Positions 42,650-53,332 of a DNA stretch of 64,000 nt are shown piece by piece. The number at the start of each line of letters is the position of its first letter. Position 1 is the first letter of the stretch. A program made the position numbers and the translations under genes. Below the pieces are notes generated by a model that was not told the DNA's origin, searched no databases, and saw only the letters and a program-made list of their open reading frames with translations. The DNA is from Nannocystales bacterium (GTDB taxonomy: Bacteria > Myxococcota_A > Polyangia > Nannocystales > Nannocystaceae), in contig JBOEGF010000018.1 in NCBI GenBank assembly GCA_050633305.1, forward strand, positions 192,001-256,000, in the 5' to 3' direction.

Positions 42650-43900
42650 CTAGGTCCCCGTCCTCCATCCCTCGAGGTAGCGCTGCTGTGCATCGGTGAG
42701 CACGTCGATTCGGACCCCAATCGCTTCGAGTTTCACGGCCGCGACGGCCCGATCGATGTCGTCGGGGATCGTGTGCACGCCCGGAGCCGGGACGCCTCGG
42801 CCCAGGGCAAGGGATTCCGCGGCGAGGGCCTGGTTCGCGAAACTCAGGTCCATGACATCTGCCGGGTGTCCCTCGGCGGCCGCGAGGTTGGCCAGTCGGC
42901 CTTGCGCAACGACGAGCACGACGCGTCCACCTGGCAGCGTGAATTCCGTGAGGTGGTCGCGAAGCTCGCGCTGCGCCGTGGCGATGTACTCCAGCGCTTT
43001 GAGGTCGAGTTCCACATCGAAGTGCCCCGAGTTGGCGATCACGATCCCCGATTTCATTCGCTCGAAGTGTTCGGCACGCACGACGTGTTCGTTTCCGGTT
43101 GTGGTGCACAGAAAGTCCGCCTGCTCGACGGCTTCTTTCAGGGGCATCACCGCGAGGCCATCCATCAGAGCTTCGAGCCCGCGGACGGGGTCGACCTCGG
43201 TCACGATGACACGCGCCCCCAGCCCAGCCGCTCGCTCGGCGACCCCACGTCCGCACCATCCGTAGCCACACACCACAAAGGTCGAACCGGCGATGAGTCG
43301 GTTCGTGGCCCGCATGAAAGCGTCGAGCGTGGACTGTCCGGTGCCGTAGCGGTTGTCGAACATGTGTTTGGTGCGGGCGTCGTTGACCGCGAACACCGGG
43401 AATCGCAGTACGCCTTCCCGGGCCATACTGTGCAGTCGGGTGACACCTGTCGTGGTTTCCTCCGTGCCGCCGATGACGGAATCGAGCAAGTCCGTGCGCT
43501 TGGTGTGCAACAGCGTGGTGAGGTCGGCTCCATCGTCGAGGACGAGGTGGGGCCGGTGCTCGACCGCCTGGCCGAGGTGCCGGAAGTAGGTGTCACGGTC
43601 CTCGCCGGCGATCGCGAAGACCTCGATGCCGTCGAGGACCGCGAGTCCGGCAGCGACGGTGTTCTGAACGCTCAAGGGGTTGCTCGCGCAGAGTCGAACC
43701 TCGGCGCCACCGGCTGCGAGCGTGCGGACCAAGACTGCGGTCTCGGCGGTGACGTGCATGCAGGCCGCGGCGCGAATCCCCTCGAGAGGGCGCTCGCGGG
43801 CGAATCGTTCGCGAATTGCCATCACCGCCGGCATGGCGCGCTCGGCCCATTCGATGTCCTGTTGTCCACGCGGCGCGAGCGAGTTGTCGAAGATGTCCAT
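42650..43900 (-). CDS. ahcY: Adenosylhomocysteinase (short type)
   Basis: CMHVTAET, SNPLS, LDDGAD, EETTTG, KHMFDNRYGTGQS, GYGWCGRG, GHFDVE and GRLANLAAAEGHP motifs. Confidence 0.96.
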   Translation of the reverse strand: MDIFDNSLAPRGQQDIEWAERAMPAVMAIRERFARERPLEGIRAAACMHVTAETAVLVRTLAAGGAEVRLCASNPLSVQNTVAAGLAVLDGIEVFAIAGEDRDTYFRHLGQAVEHRPHLVLDDGADLTTLLHTKRTDLLDSVIGGTEETTTGVTRLHSMAREGVLRFPVFAVNDARTKHMFDNRYGTGQSTLDAFMRATNRLIAGSTFVVCGYGWCGRGVAERAAGLGARVIVTEVDPVRGLEALMDGLAVMPLKEAVEQADFLCTTTGNEHVVRAEHFERMKSGIVIANSGHFDVELDLKALEYIATAQRELRDHLTEFTLPGGRVVLVVAQGRLANLAAAEGHPADVMDLSFANQALAAESLALGRGVPAPGVHTIPDDIDRAVAAVKLEAIGVRIDVLTDAQQRYLEGWRTGT

Positions 43901-43958
43901 GCCCGTGGTGTGACTTCGAACCGCGTGTTAGTCACTTGAATCTATTTTTCGTATGGCG

Positions 43959-43975
43959 TTAGCATTGCTAATGCT
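43959..43975. promoter_or_regulatory. Putative LysR-type operator (T-N11-A palindrome) between ahcY and the LysR gene
   Basis: TTAGCATTGCTAA (43959-43971) is a perfect T-N11-A dyad; it overlaps a second dyad AGCATT-gct-AATGCT (43961-43975) and the LysR ATG; the region is locally AT-rich. Confidence 0.7.
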
Positions 43976-44909
43976 TCCGGATTTGAACAGGTTGAAGGTG
44001 TTCGTCCACGTCCACGAAGCCGGGAGTGCGCGGGAAGCTGCTGTCTTGCTCGGAGTGACCCAGTCGGCGGTGAGTCAGAGCTTGGGAAAGCTCGAGGCTG
44101 AACTCGGCGTCGCGCTGTTCGTCCGGCAGCATCGCCGGCTGGTTCGGACTGCCGAGGGGCGCCGCTTATACGATGTTGTCGCTCCGTTTCTCGCGGCGCT
44201 CTCGGAGTCCCTCCCCGAACTCGAACGGACGTCGGGCGAGCTGGTGGGGACGCTTCGTGTCGGTGCGCCAGCCGAGCTGGGGGCGGCGCGACTACCTGCG
44301 GTCTTTGCCGCGTTCCGGGTGGAACACCCGACGGTGAGCTTCTCCCTGCGTCTTGGGCATCCGTCGGTCCTGGTCCCGGAACTCGCCGACGGCGGCCTCG
44401 ACATCGCGTTTGTCGACGAGTTCGACGCTCCCGCGCGGCGGGCAGGTGGCATCGACGCCCATGGGGGGCTCGATGAGCAACTGGTGTTGGCCGGGAGCCC
44501 TCAGGTCGTCGCCGCTGCCCGGGAAGGCAAGGACCGCTTCGCGCGCCTGCAGGCTGCCGACTTCGTCACGTACCACTCGCGTGGACCCTCGGTGGCGTCC
44601 TGGTTTCAGCATCACTTCCAGCGCGTCCCCGGACGCATTCGCCGTGCGGTGGTCGTGGAGAGCGTGCAGGCCGTCGTGGGTTCGGTTCTGGCCGGACTCG
44701 GGCTGGGCGTCGTCCCCTACGATGCCGTCGCAGCTGCCGTGGAGCGAGGGGAACTGGAGGTTGTCCGCACCCGGAAGCGACCCTTGCTCAACAGAATCTC
44801 GTTGCTGCGGCTCCTCGACAAGCGGCCCTCGACGTTGGAACAGAAGTTCCTCGCGACCCTCCCCACCCAGCTCCGCGGGTACTCCCGGCACTCAGCTGGC
44901 GGACTGTAG
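43971..44909 (+). CDS. LysR family transcriptional regulator
   Basis: DLNRLKVF...GSAREAAVLLGVTQSAVSQSLGKLEAELGVALFVR HTH; GTLRVG; substrate-binding domain; divergent from ahcY. Confidence 0.95.
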   Translation: MLPDLNRLKVFVHVHEAGSAREAAVLLGVTQSAVSQSLGKLEAELGVALFVRQHRRLVRTAEGRRLYDVVAPFLAALSESLPELERTSGELVGTLRVGAPAELGAARLPAVFAAFRVEHPTVSFSLRLGHPSVLVPELADGGLDIAFVDEFDAPARRAGGIDAHGGLDEQLVLAGSPQVVAAAREGKDRFARLQAADFVTYHSRGPSVASWFQHHFQRVPGRIRRAVVVESVQAVVGSVLAGLGLGVVPYDAVAAAVERGELEVVRTRKRPLLNRISLLRLLDKRPSTLEQKFLATLPTQLRGYSRHSAGGL

Positions 44910-45692: not shown

Positions 45693-46061
45693 TCAGCGAA
45701 GGGTGCGACCGAATGGAAGCAGCGATAGAGGGATCAGCTTGATGTGCTGCTTGGCAAACGGGAGCCCGACGATCGTGATGGCGAGGCAGCAGGCCCAGAT
45801 GAAGTGCGCGATCGCGAGCTCCCAACCGAACAACACCAACCACAGCAGGTTGAAGACGATCCGCAGTGCGCTGTTGGCGTGGGGCAGCTCCCGCACCTCC
45901 TTGCCGAAGGGCGTGAGGGTGGCGGCCCCGATCTTCATGGCTTGAATGCCAAAGGGGATGCCGACGATGGTGACGCAGAGGCCGAGGCCCGCGACGATCC
46001 AGGCGAGGCCGGAGAGCAACCCGCCGAAGACGAGCCAGATGAGATTGCCGAGCAAGGACAT
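45693..46061 (-). CDS. yccF: YccF domain inner-membrane protein
   Basis: Two repeats of N-x-x-W-x-x-x-G ... TIVG(I/L)PF ... PFG; start ATG 46061. Confidence 0.9.
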   Translation of the reverse strand: MSLLGNLIWLVFGGLLSGLAWIVAGLGLCVTIVGIPFGIQAMKIGAATLTPFGKEVRELPHANSALRIVFNLLWLVLFGWELAIAHFIWACCLAITIVGLPFAKQHIKLIPLSLLPFGRTLR

Positions 46062-46422: not shown

Positions 46423-47850
46423 TCAGCGCTTGGGGTTCTGAATGTGGATGGCCTCACCGATGGCGTGCTTGGCCGCTTCCATCACCGCCTCACCCAGCGT
46501 GGGGTGGGGGTGAATTGTCAGGCCGATGTCGGGGCCGTACGCGCCCATCTCGATCGCCAGTGCGGCTTCGGAGATGAGGTCGCTCGCCTCGGGTCCGACG
46601 ATGTGAACCCCGAGGACGCGCTCGTCGTCAGCATCGACGACCACTTTCACGAAGCCCACAGCCTCGTCGATCGCCATGGCTCGGCCGCTGGCGGCGAAGG
46701 GGAACTTGCCAATGTTGACCTTGTGGCCCTTGGCTTCCGCTTCCTTCTTGTTCATCCCCGCCGAGCTGATCTCGGGGTCGGTGAACACCACAGCCGGGAT
46801 CACTCGCGCATCGTTGACGGTCTTCTTGCCTGCGATGACCTCGGCGATGACCTCGCCCTCGTGGCTGGCCTTGTGCGCGAGCATGGGCTGACCGACGACG
46901 TCTCCAGCGGCGTAGATGCCAGGCACGTTGGTCTGCTGCCGGTTGTCGACGACGATGAAGCCCTTGTCGTCCAACTTCACGCCCGAACGCTCGATGGCCA
47001 AGCCGCGCGTGATCGGGAAGCGACCGACCGCGACCAAGACGACATCGGCGGAGACCTCTCGGGTCTCGCCGCCCACGTCCATCTTGACCACGGCCTTGCC
47101 ATTTCGCTCTTCCCAGCCGGTCGCGCGGGCGCCCGTGATGATCTCCCCGCCGTCCTTCTTGATCTGCTTGGCGACCGGCATACCCAGGTCCTTTTCCATG
47201 GCCGCGAGAATGCGGTCCATGCCTTCGACGACGGTCAGCTTCGTGCCCAGACGTTGGAAGGTTTGGCCAAGCTCCAGGCCGATGTAGCCACCGCCGATGA
47301 CGATCATCTCATCGGGGATTTCATCGAGCGCGAGGGCTCCCGTGCTGTCGACGATGCGCTTGCCGTCGTACTCGAACCCGGGGATCTGGATCGGAAGCGA
47401 GCCGGTCGCGAGGACGATGTGCTCCGCCTCGACGATATCGTCGGGCTTCTTCTTGCCGTCGACCTCGGGGTAGCTGAGCTTGACGCGCTTGGGCGCCAGG
47501 AACTCGGCGGTGGCTTGCACGTAGTCGCAGCCGTTGGCTTTGACCAGGCCGTGGACGCCGCTGGTGAGCTTGTGAATGACGCCGCCCTTCCAGGCTTGCA
47601 TCTTCTTCATGTCGACCTTCGGCGGGCCAAAGGTGATGCCCATGCTCTCGGCGTGCTGCGCTTTGTGGGCGAGCTTCGTCGCGCTGATCAGCGCCTTCGA
47701 TGGAATGCAGCCGACGTTGAGGCATACGCCGCCGGGCTGGGCCTTCTCGACGAGCATGGCGTCGACGCCGAGCTGGCCGAGGCGAATGGCGCAGGGATAG
47801 CCACCGGTGCCGGCACCGATGACGAGGGCTTTCTTCTTGATGATGGCCAT
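46423..47850 (-). CDS. lpdA: Dihydrolipoyl dehydrogenase (E3)
   Basis: GAGTGG, GGVCLNVGCIPSK, GGGYIGLE, GDVVGQPMLAHKA and HPHPTLGE motifs; all catalytic motifs present. Confidence 0.97.
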   Translation of the reverse strand: MAIIKKKALVIGAGTGGYPCAIRLGQLGVDAMLVEKAQPGGVCLNVGCIPSKALISATKLAHKAQHAESMGITFGPPKVDMKKMQAWKGGVIHKLTSGVHGLVKANGCDYVQATAEFLAPKRVKLSYPEVDGKKKPDDIVEAEHIVLATGSLPIQIPGFEYDGKRIVDSTGALALDEIPDEMIVIGGGYIGLELGQTFQRLGTKLTVVEGMDRILAAMEKDLGMPVAKQIKKDGGEIITGARATGWEERNGKAVVKMDVGGETREVSADVVLVAVGRFPITRGLAIERSGVKLDDKGFIVVDNRQQTNVPGIYAAGDVVGQPMLAHKASHEGEVIAEVIAGKKTVNDARVIPAVVFTDPEISSAGMNKKEAEAKGHKVNIGKFPFAASGRAMAIDEAVGFVKVVVDADDERVLGVHIVGPEASDLISEAALAIEMGAYGPDIGLTIHPHPTLGEAVMEAAKHAIGEAIHIQNPKR

Positions 47851-47863
47851 GGCTGGAGGGCGA

Positions 47864-49138
47864 TCAGACGGAGAGGAACAGAAGGTTGGGGTTCTCGAGC
47901 TGGCGCTTGACCTCTTGCATGAAGCTGGCGCCCTCGAAGCCGTCGACGACGCGGTGGTCGAACGAGGCGGAGAGGTTCATGAGGTGGGCAGCGACGACGT
48001 TGTCGTTCTCGTCGAAGACTGGAGTCTTGCGGATCGCGTGCACGCCCAGGATCCCGACCTCGGGGTGGTTGAGGATCGGGGTCGCCAGCACGCCACCGAT
48101 GGCGCCGAGGCTGGAGACGGTGAAGGTCGAGCCGGTGAGCTCGTTGCGGGAGGCCGTGCCTTCCCGAGCTGCGTCGGAGACCCGGGTGATCTCGGCGGCG
48201 ACCTCGAGGATGCTCATCCGATCGGCGTCGTGGAGGACCGGGACCATCAAGCCCTGCTCGGTCGTCGCGGCGATGCCGATGTTGTACTGCTTGCGCTTGA
48301 CGATGTTGCCCCCGGCCTCGTCGAGGAACGCGTTGACGATCGGGTACTTCTTGAGCGCTGCGATGACCGCCTTGACGATGAACGGCAGGTAGGTGAGCTG
48401 CACGCCCTCGGCTTTGGCGACCGGCTTGGCATCCTTGCGGGCCTTGACCAGTTTCGTGACGTCGATCTGCTCGACGTAGGTGTAGTGGACCGCGGTCGTG
48501 TACGACTTGACCATGCCCTCTGCGATGCGGCGACGCATGCCGCGGAAAGGCACGAGTTCGTCAGCGTCGGAGACCACAGCGGGAGCAGTGGGCGCTGCTG
48601 GACGGGCGTTGGGCGGTGTCGGTGCCGCGGCGGCAGGGACGGCTGGAGCTGCGACCGGAGCCGGAGTCGCGCGAGCCTGAGCGACGTGGGCCTTGGTGAT
48701 GCGGCCGCGGTCGCCAGGGACCGTGGCGAGGTCGATCCCCGCTTCGCGGGCCATGGCTCGCGCGGCGGGAGTGGCCAGGACTTTCCCTCCGGTTGGGGCT
48801 GGAGCCGGAGCTGCGACTGGGGCCGAAACCGGAGCGGCCACGGGAGCCGGGGCCGCGGGTGCTGGCGCAGCTGCCGCGGCCGACGGCTTTGGAGCTGCGG
48901 CCCCGTCGGAGGCCAGCATCGCGATCACCTGACCGACGGCCGCGATCTCGCCTTCGGGCGCTTTGTGCTCTTGAACGACGGCATCTTGCGGCGAGGGAAT
49001 CTCGACGGTTGCCTTGTCGGTCATGATCTCGACAAGGGGCTCGTTGGCCATGACGTTGTCGCCGGGCTGTTTCAGCCAGCGCACGATTTCACCTTCGACG
49101 ACGCCTTCACCGATGGCGGGGAGCTTGAACTCGATCAT
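47864..49138 (-). CDS. Dihydrolipoamide acyltransferase (E2) of a 2-oxoacid dehydrogenase complex
   Basis: Single lipoyl domain (TDKATVEIPSP), Ala/Pro linker, PSBD (ATPAARAMAREAGIDL), catalytic DHRVVDG. Confidence 0.96.
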   Translation of the reverse strand: MIEFKLPAIGEGVVEGEIVRWLKQPGDNVMANEPLVEIMTDKATVEIPSPQDAVVQEHKAPEGEIAAVGQVIAMLASDGAAAPKPSAAAAAPAPAAPAPVAAPVSAPVAAPAPAPTGGKVLATPAARAMAREAGIDLATVPGDRGRITKAHVAQARATPAPVAAPAVPAAAAPTPPNARPAAPTAPAVVSDADELVPFRGMRRRIAEGMVKSYTTAVHYTYVEQIDVTKLVKARKDAKPVAKAEGVQLTYLPFIVKAVIAALKKYPIVNAFLDEAGGNIVKRKQYNIGIAATTEQGLMVPVLHDADRMSILEVAAEITRVSDAAREGTASRNELTGSTFTVSSLGAIGGVLATPILNHPEVGILGVHAIRKTPVFDENDNVVAAHLMNLSASFDHRVVDGFEGASFMQEVKRQLENPNLLFLSV

Positions 49139-49194
49139 TGCAGGGTCCTTGGAGATTGGAGAAATTCGAGAGGGCGCGACAGAATCGCGGACGC

Positions 49195-50148
49195 TTAGAA
49201 CGTCGCGACGTGGGTGATGGCGGTGCTGAGGGTCTCGAGGTCGGGCAGGGCCCGGGCCTCGGCAGATGCGGTCAGAGGACCGTCATCGCCGGTGACGCGA
49301 AGCACGGGGGCGTCGAGGGTGAGGATGGCGTGGTCGGCAAACAGAGCCGCGAGTTCGGAGCCCACACCGCAGTGCCGCGGACCTTCGTGCGCGATGACGA
49401 TCTTGCCCGTGGCCTTCGCCTCGGCGGTGAGAGCATCGCGGTCCAGCGGTGCGAGGCACTCCACGTCGATGATGCGGGCATCTTGACCCGACCGGTCGAC
49501 GGCCGCTTGCACGAGGGGAAGGCATGCGCCCCAGGTGAAGACCGTCGCAGCTTCGCCGTCGCGGACTCGCCGCGGACTGGCGAACGGTCGGGCGAGTGCA
49601 TCGACGCACTCTCCGGCAGGAGCCAGCGCCAAGCTTCTGGGGATGAGCAACACAGTCGGCTCGTCCCCGGCCCAACCTTCGACAGCTGCACGAAGGGTTG
49701 CGCCGGACTCGGAAGCTTCGCCAAGAACCACCACGCGGAGGCCGGGCACTCGCGAGAGGATCGATGCGGGTCCTTCCGTGCCTCCACCACCGAGGCCGAA
49801 CCCAGGGCCGAACGGCGCGAGGAACACCACGGGCGCGGGAATCTCGTGACGCCAGCCGAGCTTGGCGGACTCTCGCAGTGCGGCGAGGCTGTCCACGAGC
49901 GACGACGCCTCCGGGCAGATGACGATCGGACGGAGCCCCTCGGCTGCCATCCCTGCCGCGTGGGCGGGGAGCACGGTGGGGCACAGCGGGGTTGCGAGCA
50001 GGCGGGGAGCCAGCTCGGGGTCGTCGGCCGCGACACGGGTGAGGCCGAGCATGGTGCCGTCGACCACGTCCTCGCCGAGGACGACACGACGCTCGTCGGC
50101 ACGAAGCAGGTCTGCGAGCACGGTGGCGAGATGTTGCAAGACGTTCAT
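49195..50148 (-). CDS. 2-oxoacid dehydrogenase E1 beta-like subunit, catalytic residues degenerate
   Basis: VVLGEDV, GLRP, PGLRVV, TWGA, PLD and TGKIVIAHEGP...GSELAA...LDAPVLRVTG are recognisable; TPLSE reads TPLCP and HSQ reads GTE; ATGA overlap with E1 alpha. Confidence 0.88.
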   Translation of the reverse strand: MNVLQHLATVLADLLRADERRVVLGEDVVDGTMLGLTRVAADDPELAPRLLATPLCPTVLPAHAAGMAAEGLRPIVICPEASSLVDSLAALRESAKLGWRHEIPAPVVFLAPFGPGFGLGGGGTEGPASILSRVPGLRVVVLGEASESGATLRAAVEGWAGDEPTVLLIPRSLALAPAGECVDALARPFASPRRVRDGEAATVFTWGACLPLVQAAVDRSGQDARIIDVECLAPLDRDALTAEAKATGKIVIAHEGPRHCGVGSELAALFADHAILTLDAPVLRVTGDDGPLTASAEARALPDLETLSTAITHVATF

Positions 50149-51056
50149 GCGGGCTCCGTGACAGATTCGATGGCGCGGTCGAGGCTTCCGCGAACTTCCG
50201 CTTCGATCACGTCTTGAAGCGTTTGAGTCCAGGCGCCGGTTTGGTCCAAGTGCCGTCGGAGTCGCTCGACCGGGTCGCGATGCGCTGGGGGGTCGCGGTG
50301 CATTTGGGTGACCACGACCTCGACCAAGCTCGCGCCGCGTCCTTGGCGAGCGCGGTCGGCAGCCGCCTCGATGGCGGCGTGGGTTCCGAGCGCATCTGCG
50401 CCGTCCACCCGGCGGACCCAAAGACCTGCGGCCTTGGCACGGTCCGCCACTGCGTCGCCCACGGCTCCAGCCTCCGCGGGCGCGCCGTCGGGCCACAGTT
50501 GGCTGCGGCAAACCATCACCAACGGCAGCGCGAGCGAGGACGCGAGCATTGTCGACTCGTGAAACGCTCCGGTTGTGGTCAGGCCTTCGCCGAACAAGCC
50601 GAACGTGACCCCGCGCTTGTCGGCCAGCTTCTGTGCGTGGGCACGGCCTGTCGCGAGCGCGAGGTGCATACCCAGCGCGTCGGTTGGGGGCGCGATGCGA
50701 TGGCTTGCCGAAGCGATGCGTCCGGGCCCCAACTCGTCGGAGCTGAAGAGTCCGGCGACGATGGCTTCGAGCTCGAGGCCTCGCCCCAAGGCCACCGCGG
50801 CGTCGCGGAAGCCGGGATAGATCCAGTCCTGCTCCTCGCTGACCAACGCGGTGGAGATCAACGCGGCTTCTTCGCCCGCGGCAGATGCCCACATCGGCAG
50901 ACCAGCGCGGCTGAGTTTTAGGTCGAGGCAGCGGGCGGCGACCAACAGCTTATAGAGCTGCTTCGTGTCGACGCTTCCGGGGCGTGTGCCCACCAGCTGA
51001 CCGTTGGGGTCGAGAACGACCGTGACGCCTTCGGGATCCCAGGGTGTCGGCTCCAT
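50145..51056 (-). CDS. 2-oxoacid dehydrogenase E1 alpha-like subunit, ThDP-binding motif degenerate
   Basis: GEEAA, DWIYPGFRD, FGEG...GAFHE, RVDGAD, RARQGRGASLVE and DPVERLRRHL are recognisable; GDG...NN reads GEG...RS; the YR..HS loop is absent. Start ATG 51056. Confidence 0.88.
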   Translation of the reverse strand: MEPTPWDPEGVTVVLDPNGQLVGTRPGSVDTKQLYKLLVAARCLDLKLSRAGLPMWASAAGEEAALISTALVSEEQDWIYPGFRDAAVALGRGLELEAIVAGLFSSDELGPGRIASASHRIAPPTDALGMHLALATGRAHAQKLADKRGVTFGLFGEGLTTTGAFHESTMLASSLALPLVMVCRSQLWPDGAPAEAGAVGDAVADRAKAAGLWVRRVDGADALGTHAAIEAAADRARQGRGASLVEVVVTQMHRDPPAHRDPVERLRRHLDQTGAWTQTLQDVIEAEVRGSLDRAIESVTEPA

Positions 51057-51119: not shown

Positions 51120-51149
51120 GTTGTATCTACGGCCGGCCTGGAGCGTCAA
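51120..51149 (-). promoter_or_regulatory. Putative sigma70-type promoter of the E1a-E1b-E2-E3 operon
   Basis: Minus strand TTGACG-N18-TACAAC, with the -10 about 63 nt upstream of the E1 alpha ATG. Confidence 0.5.
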
Positions 51150-52579: not shown

Positions 52580-53332
52580 ATGCTGACCGTCGCATCACTG
52601 CTTGCCGCGATGACCATCGCAGGCGCATTCTGGGTGGGTGTTCTCGCGGCCCGACGCCTGCGCGACTGGGGAGAAGGGCGACGCGCGCTCGAGGAGGGAC
52701 ATGGACCACCCATGGCCCTTGCCGCCGCGGCCGGCGCTCCCCCGGACGACCCCTCCAGTCGTCGTGTTCGACAACTGGTTGCCGAACGCCTCGCCAACCC
52801 CCGCCGGAGGGCTGGCGCGGTCGCGCCCCGGCAGCTGGCCTCTTCTGATCCTGCCGCCCGGAGCGAGCTCGGTCTGAGCTCACTGCGACAAGGCGATGTT
52901 GTCGTTGTCGAGGCGGCGGACGGCGGGGCGGACGGCGACTACTTGACCGAAGGTGTGGTCCTGCTGCGAGAAGGCAACCACACCACCACCGTCGTCAACA
53001 TGGCGGATGGTTCTCGCCGACGGTGGCTCGTGGGGGGGTCTCATCTCGACGAGTGGTTCGTGCTCGAGCCGATCGCAGCCCATGGCCTCAGCGGTGAACC
53101 GCCACGCAACATCCGTCGCGACCGTGGCGACTACACGCTGCAACGTCGTGGGCAGGCGAGCGCGGCATGCACTGGACGGCACGAACGCCCCGAGCAACCC
53201 CGGGTGGCGAGCTACGTTTATGGGGGGTCGTCGCGCAACGTGCTGTGGCTGGAGCGCTGGGGGCACGAAGTGCTGATGGCCGAGGGCATCCGTCTCGAGG
53301 CCGAGTCCGTCTCGTTCCTCCCGGGAAGCTGA
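52580..53332 (+). CDS. DUF4178-like domain protein with N-terminal TM
   Basis: N-terminal TM; LRQGDVV...DYLTEG...LREG...RRWL...YTLQRRGQA...YVY...LWLERWG...G pattern. Confidence 0.65.
   Translation: MLTVASLLAAMTIAGAFWVGVLAARRLRDWGEGRRALEEGHGPPMALAAAAGAPPDDPSSRRVRQLVAERLANPRRRAGAVAPRQLASSDPAARSELGLSSLRQGDVVVVEAADGGADGDYLTEGVVLLREGNHTTTVVNMADGSRRRWLVGGSHLDEWFVLEPIAAHGLSGEPPRNIRRDRGDYTLQRRGQASAACTGRHERPEQPRVASYVYGGSSRNVLWLERWGHEVLMAEGIRLEAESVSFLPGS

Follow-up and report, generated by a model that had tools for sequence, protein, structure and literature searches.

We analysed a stretch of 64,000 nucleotides from a Nannocystales bacterium (assembly GCA_050633305.1, contig JBOEGF010000018.1, positions 192,001 to 256,000; hereafter the window) and examined a 2-oxoacid dehydrogenase operon on its minus strand at 46423..51056. 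We found that the E1 alpha and E1 beta genes of this operon have lost the active-site residues of E1 and are kept by selection. Judged by its sequence, the window holds a real, conserved pseudo-E1 with a specific candidate partner, a fused alpha-beta E1 encoded elsewhere in the same genome. From sequence comparisons and a complex model we judge it fairly probable that the pseudo-E1 pair is an adaptor which tethers the working fused E1 to the E2 core. In this arrangement decarboxylation would be carried out by the orphan fused E1, which has lost the normal E2-docking motif, while the dead alpha2beta2 tetramer would dock on the peripheral subunit-binding domain (PSBD) of E2 via the beta C-domains. 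The emptied thiamine diphosphate (ThDP) cleft would hold the C-terminal tail of the fused E1, with the chain end on the old diphosphate-binding GEG, and a linker of 23-44 residues would keep the working E1 close enough for the lipoyl arms to reach it. The seating of the tail in the cleft is a model prediction; the binding of dead beta to the PSBD and the assembly of the tetramer are what we infer.

Active-site losses and conservation of the pseudo-E1

Alignment to solved E1s (3dva/1w85) placed RSQLW of the alpha subunit where the G. stearothermophilus enzyme has QNNRF, and the YR...H...DD loop (His271 loop) and the C-terminal arm were absent. The equivalents of N202 (the Mg-ligand Asn), Y102 and H271 are gone, and D173 is replaced by Glu. 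The beta subunit has TPLCP, ICPEASS and GGTEG where solved E1s have TPLxE, EIQF and HSxS, with loss of the equivalents of E59 (activating Glu), F85 (stacking Phe) and H128. These alpha and beta residues serve Mg binding, cofactor binding and catalysis (PMC2663715, in excerpt), and their loss suggests that the pair is catalytically dead. A preliminary description of the operon had listed the missing NN, the missing YR/His loop and the short C-tail of alpha as well as the three altered beta motifs, all of which were seen again on alignment. It had also counted GEG in place of GDG as a defect, but GEG occurs in 16 of 49 intact myxobacterial alphas and was dropped as a mark of catalytic death. Half-site complementation between alpha and beta was dropped too, both halves of the active site being lost.

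The losses are common to the family. Column counts for alpha refer to the best 120 of 189 homologues; GxG..NN, the Mg/diphosphate motif that active E1s have as G[DE]G-x24-28-NN, was kept in 0/120 and the [YF]RxxxH His loop in 0/120. The Glu, EIQF and the His were each kept in none of the 21 family betas, the first two being present in 53/53 intact betas (a class defined by those motifs), and G35 replaces a channel Phe also found in 53/53. At the same time alpha has kept or newly fixed R84, G156-E157-G158, S185-Q186-x-W188-P189 and P193-x-E195-A196-G197. R84, GEG, W188, P193, E195 and A196 were present in 120/120, and the SQLWP columns held S in 116, Q in 117, W in 120 and P in 119 sequences. 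The predicted structures remain those of E1: the alpha model had a predicted local distance difference test score (pLDDT) of 90 and an E1 alpha fold with a template modelling (TM) score of 0.87 to 1umb_C, and the beta model a pLDDT of 89 and a TM score of 0.90 to 1qs0_B (Foldseek). Profile scores were 161.5 bits for alpha against an NCBIfam cut-off of 411, and 96.8 for beta against 321.

Dead alpha was found in 67 of the 72 genomes of the order (Nannocystales), including all 42 of high quality and 17/17 genera, and no stop lay inside any match; the cultured Nannocystis punicea and Paraliomyxa miuraensis are among the carriers. Ratios of nonsynonymous to synonymous substitution rates (dN/dS; Nei-Gojobori, 10 within-genus pairs) were 0.07-0.19 for alpha and 0.08-0.24 for beta, beside 0.09-0.22 for E2 and 0.07-0.16 for E3. 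The proposal of a maintained pseudoenzyme, made in the preliminary description, is borne out by the losses shared among orthologues, by dN/dS and by the presence across the order: the pseudo-E1 pair is kept by selection and is not decaying.

The part of beta that would meet E2 has been retained. LDAP was present in 21/21 dead family betas and a terminal aromatic residue in 18/21; LDAP aligns with LEAP around E285 of 1w85_B, which we take to be a PSBD contact of the G. stearothermophilus beta. The wider pattern L[EDQ][ASC]P was found in 48/53 intact betas and in 10/10 dead betas of other lineages. The earlier statement that the C-terminal domain is the best-conserved part of beta held in comparison with intact betas (35%, against 26% for the N-part), but not among the 21 dead orthologues, where the N-part was 52% and the C-domain 49% conserved. 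Canonical complexes have their PSBD bound at the C-terminus of beta (PMC11754459, in excerpt), with one PSBD per tetramer on the two-fold axis (PMC2663715, in excerpt).

The ESM Atlas gave E1 alpha clusters only. The nearest of these hold E1 alpha-like proteins of short length (284-305 aa), most frequent in Acidobacteriota and Chloroflexota, which could be further dead alphas. Among 8000 longer candidates none scored as a fusion of dead alpha to another protein, which is weak evidence.

The fused E1 and the predicted docking of its tail

The genome has three E2 genes, two of them beside an E1 of their own (pyruvate dehydrogenase, PDH, on contig C22 and 2-oxoglutarate dehydrogenase, OGDH, on C29), and two fused alpha-beta E1s without E2, on C24 and C18. 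An active E1 encoded elsewhere had been suggested in the preliminary description, and the C24 protein (753 aa) fits this role. Its type was found in 69/72 genomes of the order and in 42/42 of high quality, so that the same 42 genomes hold both dead alpha and fused E1. The five catalytic motifs GDG..DN, RLNxHS, PINE, EIQF and YHSM were all intact in 26/26 family copies. Automatic database labels on its relatives read 2-oxoisovalerate dehydrogenase, and branched-chain keto acids are the probable substrate. The E1s of PDH and OGDH were rejected as partners because each has its own E2, and the second orphan on C18 was rejected as a general partner, since it occurs in 19/72 genomes (9/42 of high quality) and has no tail.

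In the 45 loci of 3-20 kb inspected around the fused E1, among them loci of relatives outside the order, neither E2 nor E3 was found. The docking motif L[EDQ][AS]P was present in 0/26 family fused E1s and in 1/120 fused proteins. Having neither docking motif nor E2 of its own, the fused E1 needs some tether. Its C-terminus consists of an Ala/Pro-rich linker (23-44 residues in the 24 of 26 copies measured) followed by a conserved tail, V/I-L-W-T-P-x-R-x-x-V-x-stop, in which L, W, T, P, R and V keep a fixed register from the stop in 26/26. An Arg 4 or 5 residues from the C-terminal end was found in 110 of the best 120 of 589 more distant relatives. No tail is present in P0122, a relative in which E2 catalytic and lipoyl domains are part of the protein itself; P0121, P0127 and P0130 also show no clear tail although they are without E2 or lipoyl domains, so the case of P0122 is only suggestive.

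We then modelled one alpha and two betas together with the C-terminal 35 residues from the fused E1. The tail-complex score had a median of 0.65 (runs 0.24, 0.74, 0.65), the best of three controls reaching 0.00; when beta was swapped for an unrelated protein the tail likewise scored 0.00. The score mark is reached by 116/157 solved complexes and 2/215 mismatched pairs, counts that are only roughly valid for this job. Runs shared at least 37% of contacts, and the pLDDT of the tail was 40-45 (at least 39). Confident contacts came only from residues 743-753, which is the conserved tail. They were predicted with alpha residues 54-57, 82-84, 128-129, 155-159, 186, 193-197 and 251 and with beta residues 4, 26-27, 30-35, 55, 79, 117 and 175. 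Together these positions make up the former ThDP cleft, and the final two tail residues are predicted to sit on G156-E157-G158 (closest alpha-tail pairs 158-752, 156-753 and 156-752). Contact positions were more conserved than the rest in both subunits (alpha 0.86 vs 0.70, permutation p 0.0015; beta 0.88 vs 0.62, p 0.00005) and include family-specific invariants (P193, E195 and A196 of alpha, G31 and G35 of beta). The model supports binding of the tail but does not prove it.

Other fused-E1 relatives show further arrangements. P0152 is joined to E2 catalytic and lipoyl domains at its C-terminus and P0122 at its N-terminus, and P0149 and P0164 are joined to lipoyl and FabH-like ketosynthase domains, an architecture that points to an acyl primer being handed over directly. 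Tail-bearing fused E1s labelled Planctomycetota, Acidobacteriota and Haliangium ochraceum were also seen (P0290, P0300 and P0376).

Recurrence across Myxococcota and alternative readings

Intact relatives in the class often have the operon order alpha1-beta-E2-alpha2-E3. In a quick tree (all trees reported here are quick trees) the pseudo-E1 alpha traces back to the first of the alphas in the intact myxobacterial operon (Shimodaira-Hasegawa-like approximate likelihood ratio test, SH-aLRT, 97), and the E2 of the order groups with intact operons of its own class (SH-aLRT 95). In a phylum sample of 401 genomes we counted a fused E1 at an expectation value of 5e-131 or better and set 16 weaker matches aside as paralogues; 78 genomes of other classes carry it. 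Intact beta was found in 22/78 fused-positive and 27/80 fused-negative genomes, a control which is uninformative because many negatives give no match at all to this beta, and operons were therefore compared directly. Outside the order, a dead alpha (no GxG..NN and no His loop) was present in 32/33 operons of fused-positive genomes and in 0/36 of fused-negative ones (intact first alpha in 30, none in the fetched stretch in 6). These control operons had been selected because they match intact alpha or beta strongly, which tells against this comparison; the fair one takes operons chosen solely for an intact-like beta. There, dead first alpha was found in 21/22 fused-positive genomes and in 0/20 fused-negative operons (15 with intact first alpha, 5 with none; 27 were available). 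In the operons examined, dead beta occurred only where no live alpha was found with it.

A forward test gave the same pattern. In a search of 400 class genomes, the fused E1 outside the order was confined to 4 of the 67 genomes of one family (f19). Three of three fused-positive operons had a dead first alpha, a live beta and a second alpha keeping its motifs (frameshifted in assembly G611), and three of three fused-negative operons had an intact first alpha; the fourth fused-positive genome, G670, a 650-contig assembly, gave no match to the operon and was excluded from the count. In a tree of 46 alphas, judged by the starred branches, the dead first alphas require three changes or more, and those of f19 group with intact f19 alphas (SH-aLRT 96). 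The dead alphas of the order join other long branches at 95, a grouping that may be an artefact. By these comparisons dead alpha would have arisen at least three times in Myxococcota, and we infer that the fused E1 was gained laterally and that the resident alpha then died repeatedly.

A broader proposal would make the dead E1 a fourth kind of 2-oxoacid dehydrogenase subunit, with its ThDP pocket now receiving the C-terminal peptide of a fused E1 of lateral origin and the peptide end mimicking the diphosphate of the cofactor. It would have originated on three or more occasions in Myxococcota, always along one route. In two-alpha operons, death of the first alpha would turn it into the socket while the second goes on working with the beta that both share, and catalysis by beta would be lost only once the second alpha is gone; a foreign enzyme would in this way plug into, and repeatedly disable, the resident E1. 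We put this forward tentatively and are slightly inclined to doubt it as a whole.

Several points weigh against the adaptor proposal. Contact residues R84, GEG, E26-D27 and L55 are conserved in active enzymes too. The model runs were uneven (0.24 to 0.74) with low pLDDT of the tail, the job was unlike those used for calibration and comprised one alpha and two betas only. The controls covered neither intact E1 nor scrambled tail nor the active site of the fused enzyme itself, and a mere preference of short peptides for any open cleft may produce such a result. The PSBD in the E2 of the pseudo-E1 family has a shortened loop. One fused-positive operon (L142) has an intact beta and a second alpha with no first or dead alpha. 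The dead alphas of other lineages are without the SQxWP/PAEAG signature, and a binding mode shared across lineages is at most a candidate. Finally, kinship among the genomes means that they are not independent cases, and the true number is a few lineages rather than dozens.

The same tail contact could be regulatory, the dead pair sequestering or inhibiting the fused E1, or binding it only in the absence of a ligand (ThDP, diphosphate or Mg) as a metabolic switch. Co-occurrence and the complex model fit this equally well, and the near invariance of R84, GEG and the Ser-Gln pair at the old metal site makes a competing ligand possible. We consider it unlikely, as the fused E1 calls for some tether and dead beta keeps the docking motif, which a pure inhibitor would not need. 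It is improbable, in our view, that the dead pair is instead a structural occupant of PSBD sites which sets E3 loading or core stability while the tail binds E2, E3 or its own active site. The retention of LDAP and of the terminal aromatic residue in dead beta would suit such an occupant, but it leaves unexplained why constraint is strongest at the residues that line the cleft in both subunits, why alpha is retained at all and why alpha death tracks the fused E1 inside f19; nor does it fit the loss of the tail score once beta was an unrelated protein. Strong new invariants in the site might also be read as a new enzyme or small-molecule binder with altered chemistry, unrelated to the fused E1, and glyoxylate carboligase is a ThDP enzyme without the activating Glu. 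However, the losses here exceed that Glu (the equivalents of N202, Y102, H271, E59, F85 and H128 are all gone) and beta decays only without a live alpha, as expected for loss of function, and we would be surprised if this reading held. Recent decay of redundant genes drifting to pseudogenes could draw on the lower GC content at third codon positions (0.78 in alpha and beta vs 0.83 in E2 and 0.87 in E3) and on the long branch to the family, but deserves almost no credence given 42/42 high-quality genomes, 17/17 genera, no internal stops, dN/dS of 0.07-0.24 and an alpha/beta start-stop overlap at 18/21 family loci.

Related operons showed variants of their own. Two intact divergent alphas around one beta, alpha1 often with GEG and alpha2 with GDG, were seen at L039:7990-12614, L040, L041, L042, L043, L170 and L195, and such operons may encode two E1s that differ in specificity, or their products may form a mixed tetramer. 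Operons L132-L136, L140 and L141 (families f35, f46, f51 and f60) have a shrunken dead beta and, after E2, a mini-alpha of about 170-200 aa reduced to the diphosphate-binding core; two mini-alphas fall with first alphas, on long branches. In family f30 (L116, L118, L120) an intact second alpha lies outside the operon, 1-5 kb from the fused E1 gene.

Operon setting and relation to known complexes

The operon consists of four uninterrupted open reading frames in the order E1 alpha-E1 beta-E2-E3 (Table 1). As the preliminary description had stated, alpha and beta are joined by an ATGA start-stop overlap, which recurs across the family as given above. Its plausible promoter fared less evenly: a strict sigma-70 consensus scan called 0 promoters (0.2 expected), while TTGACG-N17/18-TAnAAn lies upstream of alpha at 15/16 loci examined, the window counted. 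The operon is probably expressed. E2 and E3 look intact, as had been claimed. E2 keeps a lipoyl domain (DKA, K42), a PSBD and a catalytic domain with DHRVVDG (DHRxxDG), and E3 scored 523.6 bits against the TIGR01350 cut-off of 408.8, with CLNVGC and HPTLGE present. A loose pattern had hinted at loss of the PSBD in some family E2s; this was wrong, the PSBD being present in 21/21. The family PSBD (ATPAARA) has a loop 1 or 2 residues shorter than the GTGxxGR type in 21/21, and other operons keep the long loop; the shortening coincides with the change of LEAP to LDAP in beta. No E3 gene was found within the 19 kb fetched around the PDH operon (L038, on G000:C22), so the E3 of the window may serve PDH as well. 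Neighbouring genes encode a DUF4178 protein, which adjoins the operon at 16/20 family loci, a YccF membrane protein and a presumed adenosylhomocysteinase-like protein.

Table 1. Features of the window and of the fused E1 genes (window positions unless a contig is named).
Feature	Position	Strand	Remarks
E1 alpha (pseudo-E1 alpha)	50145..51056	-	303 aa; PF00676
E1 beta (pseudo-E1 beta)	49195..50148	-	317 aa; PF02779 + PF02780
E2 acyltransferase	47864..49138	-	lipoyl, PSBD and catalytic domains
E3 dihydrolipoyl dehydrogenase	46423..47850	-	TIGR01350
Promoter-like element TTGACG-N18-TACAAC	51120..51149	-	upstream of alpha; motif recurs among family loci
G156-E157-G158, former diphosphate-binding site	50583..50591	-	120/120 invariant (best 120 of 189 homologues); predicted seat of tail end
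SQLWP in place of ThDP/Mg-motif NN	50490..50504	-	column counts over alpha homologues
TPLCP (activating Glu lost)	49978-49992	-	alignment to solved E1s
LDAP of beta C-domain, E2-docking region	49306..49317	-	21/21 dead family betas; aligns with LEAP of 1w85_B
E2 PSBD	about 48683-48781	-	shortened loop
Fused E1 (proposed partner)	G000:C24:272827-275085		753 aa
Second orphan fused E1	G000:C18:758405-760678 (L037:8406-10679)		intact-looking motifs; no tail; no E2 nearby
DUF4178 gene	52580-53332	+	divergent from operon
Two-domain YccF membrane protein	45693-46061		
Presumed adenosylhomocysteinase-like protein	42650-44909		by its motifs; divergent from LysR-like gene

The closest known systems are heterotetrameric E1s (branched-chain 2-oxoacid and Gram-positive PDH; 1umb, 1qs0, 1w85; TIGR03181), which share the folds (TM 0.85-0.90), the operon order and the docking motif. 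Unlike them, every pseudo-E1 member examined has lost the Asn, the Glu, both His and the stacking Phe, and the alpha subunit is about 60 aa shorter. In function the nearest likeness is E3BP (protein X) of the eukaryotic PDH complex, an inactive E2 paralogue that recruits E3 (PMC10156792, in excerpt): in both cases an inactive paralogue of a core component would be kept to recruit another component. However, E3BP is a dead E2 which recruits E3 via its PSBD, whereas here a dead E1 would recruit another E1, at a predicted site that is the former cofactor pocket. Both pseudo-E1 subunits are E1 homologues only, with no E2-type lipoyl, PSBD or core-binding domains, and the pair is not a member of E3BP but would work like one. 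Other E1s attach without the contact of beta C-domain and PSBD: the E. coli-type E1 via its N-terminal region (PMC6270654, in excerpt) and actinobacterial OdhA by having E1 and E2 in one chain (PMC10415282), a route also taken by P0122; neither uses a separate dead E1. Myxococcus xanthus esgAB (bkd), compared by description only, is a dehydrogenase E1 for branched-chain keto acids (PMC4320627), an active enzyme of two separate genes, and the excerpted description has no dead E1 or fused partner. Titles and abstract openings in open-licence PMC and bioRxiv, with subscription journals mostly outside this search, yielded no dead E1; the only dead subunit found described for these complexes was E3BP.

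Few enzyme machines have been studied as well as the 2-oxoacid dehydrogenase complexes. The pseudo-E1 genes carry database labels of ordinary dehydrogenase subunits, so metabolic models of such bacteria credit the wrong genes. The graded operons, from intact through half-dead to shrunken, allow a stepwise view of the birth of a pseudoenzyme. If the adaptor proposal is true, this would be a complex assembled in a new manner, in which an entire order of bacteria keeps a dead E1 whose cofactor site has become a socket for a peptide. The case would then also show by what means a host multienzyme core takes in an enzyme of lateral origin.

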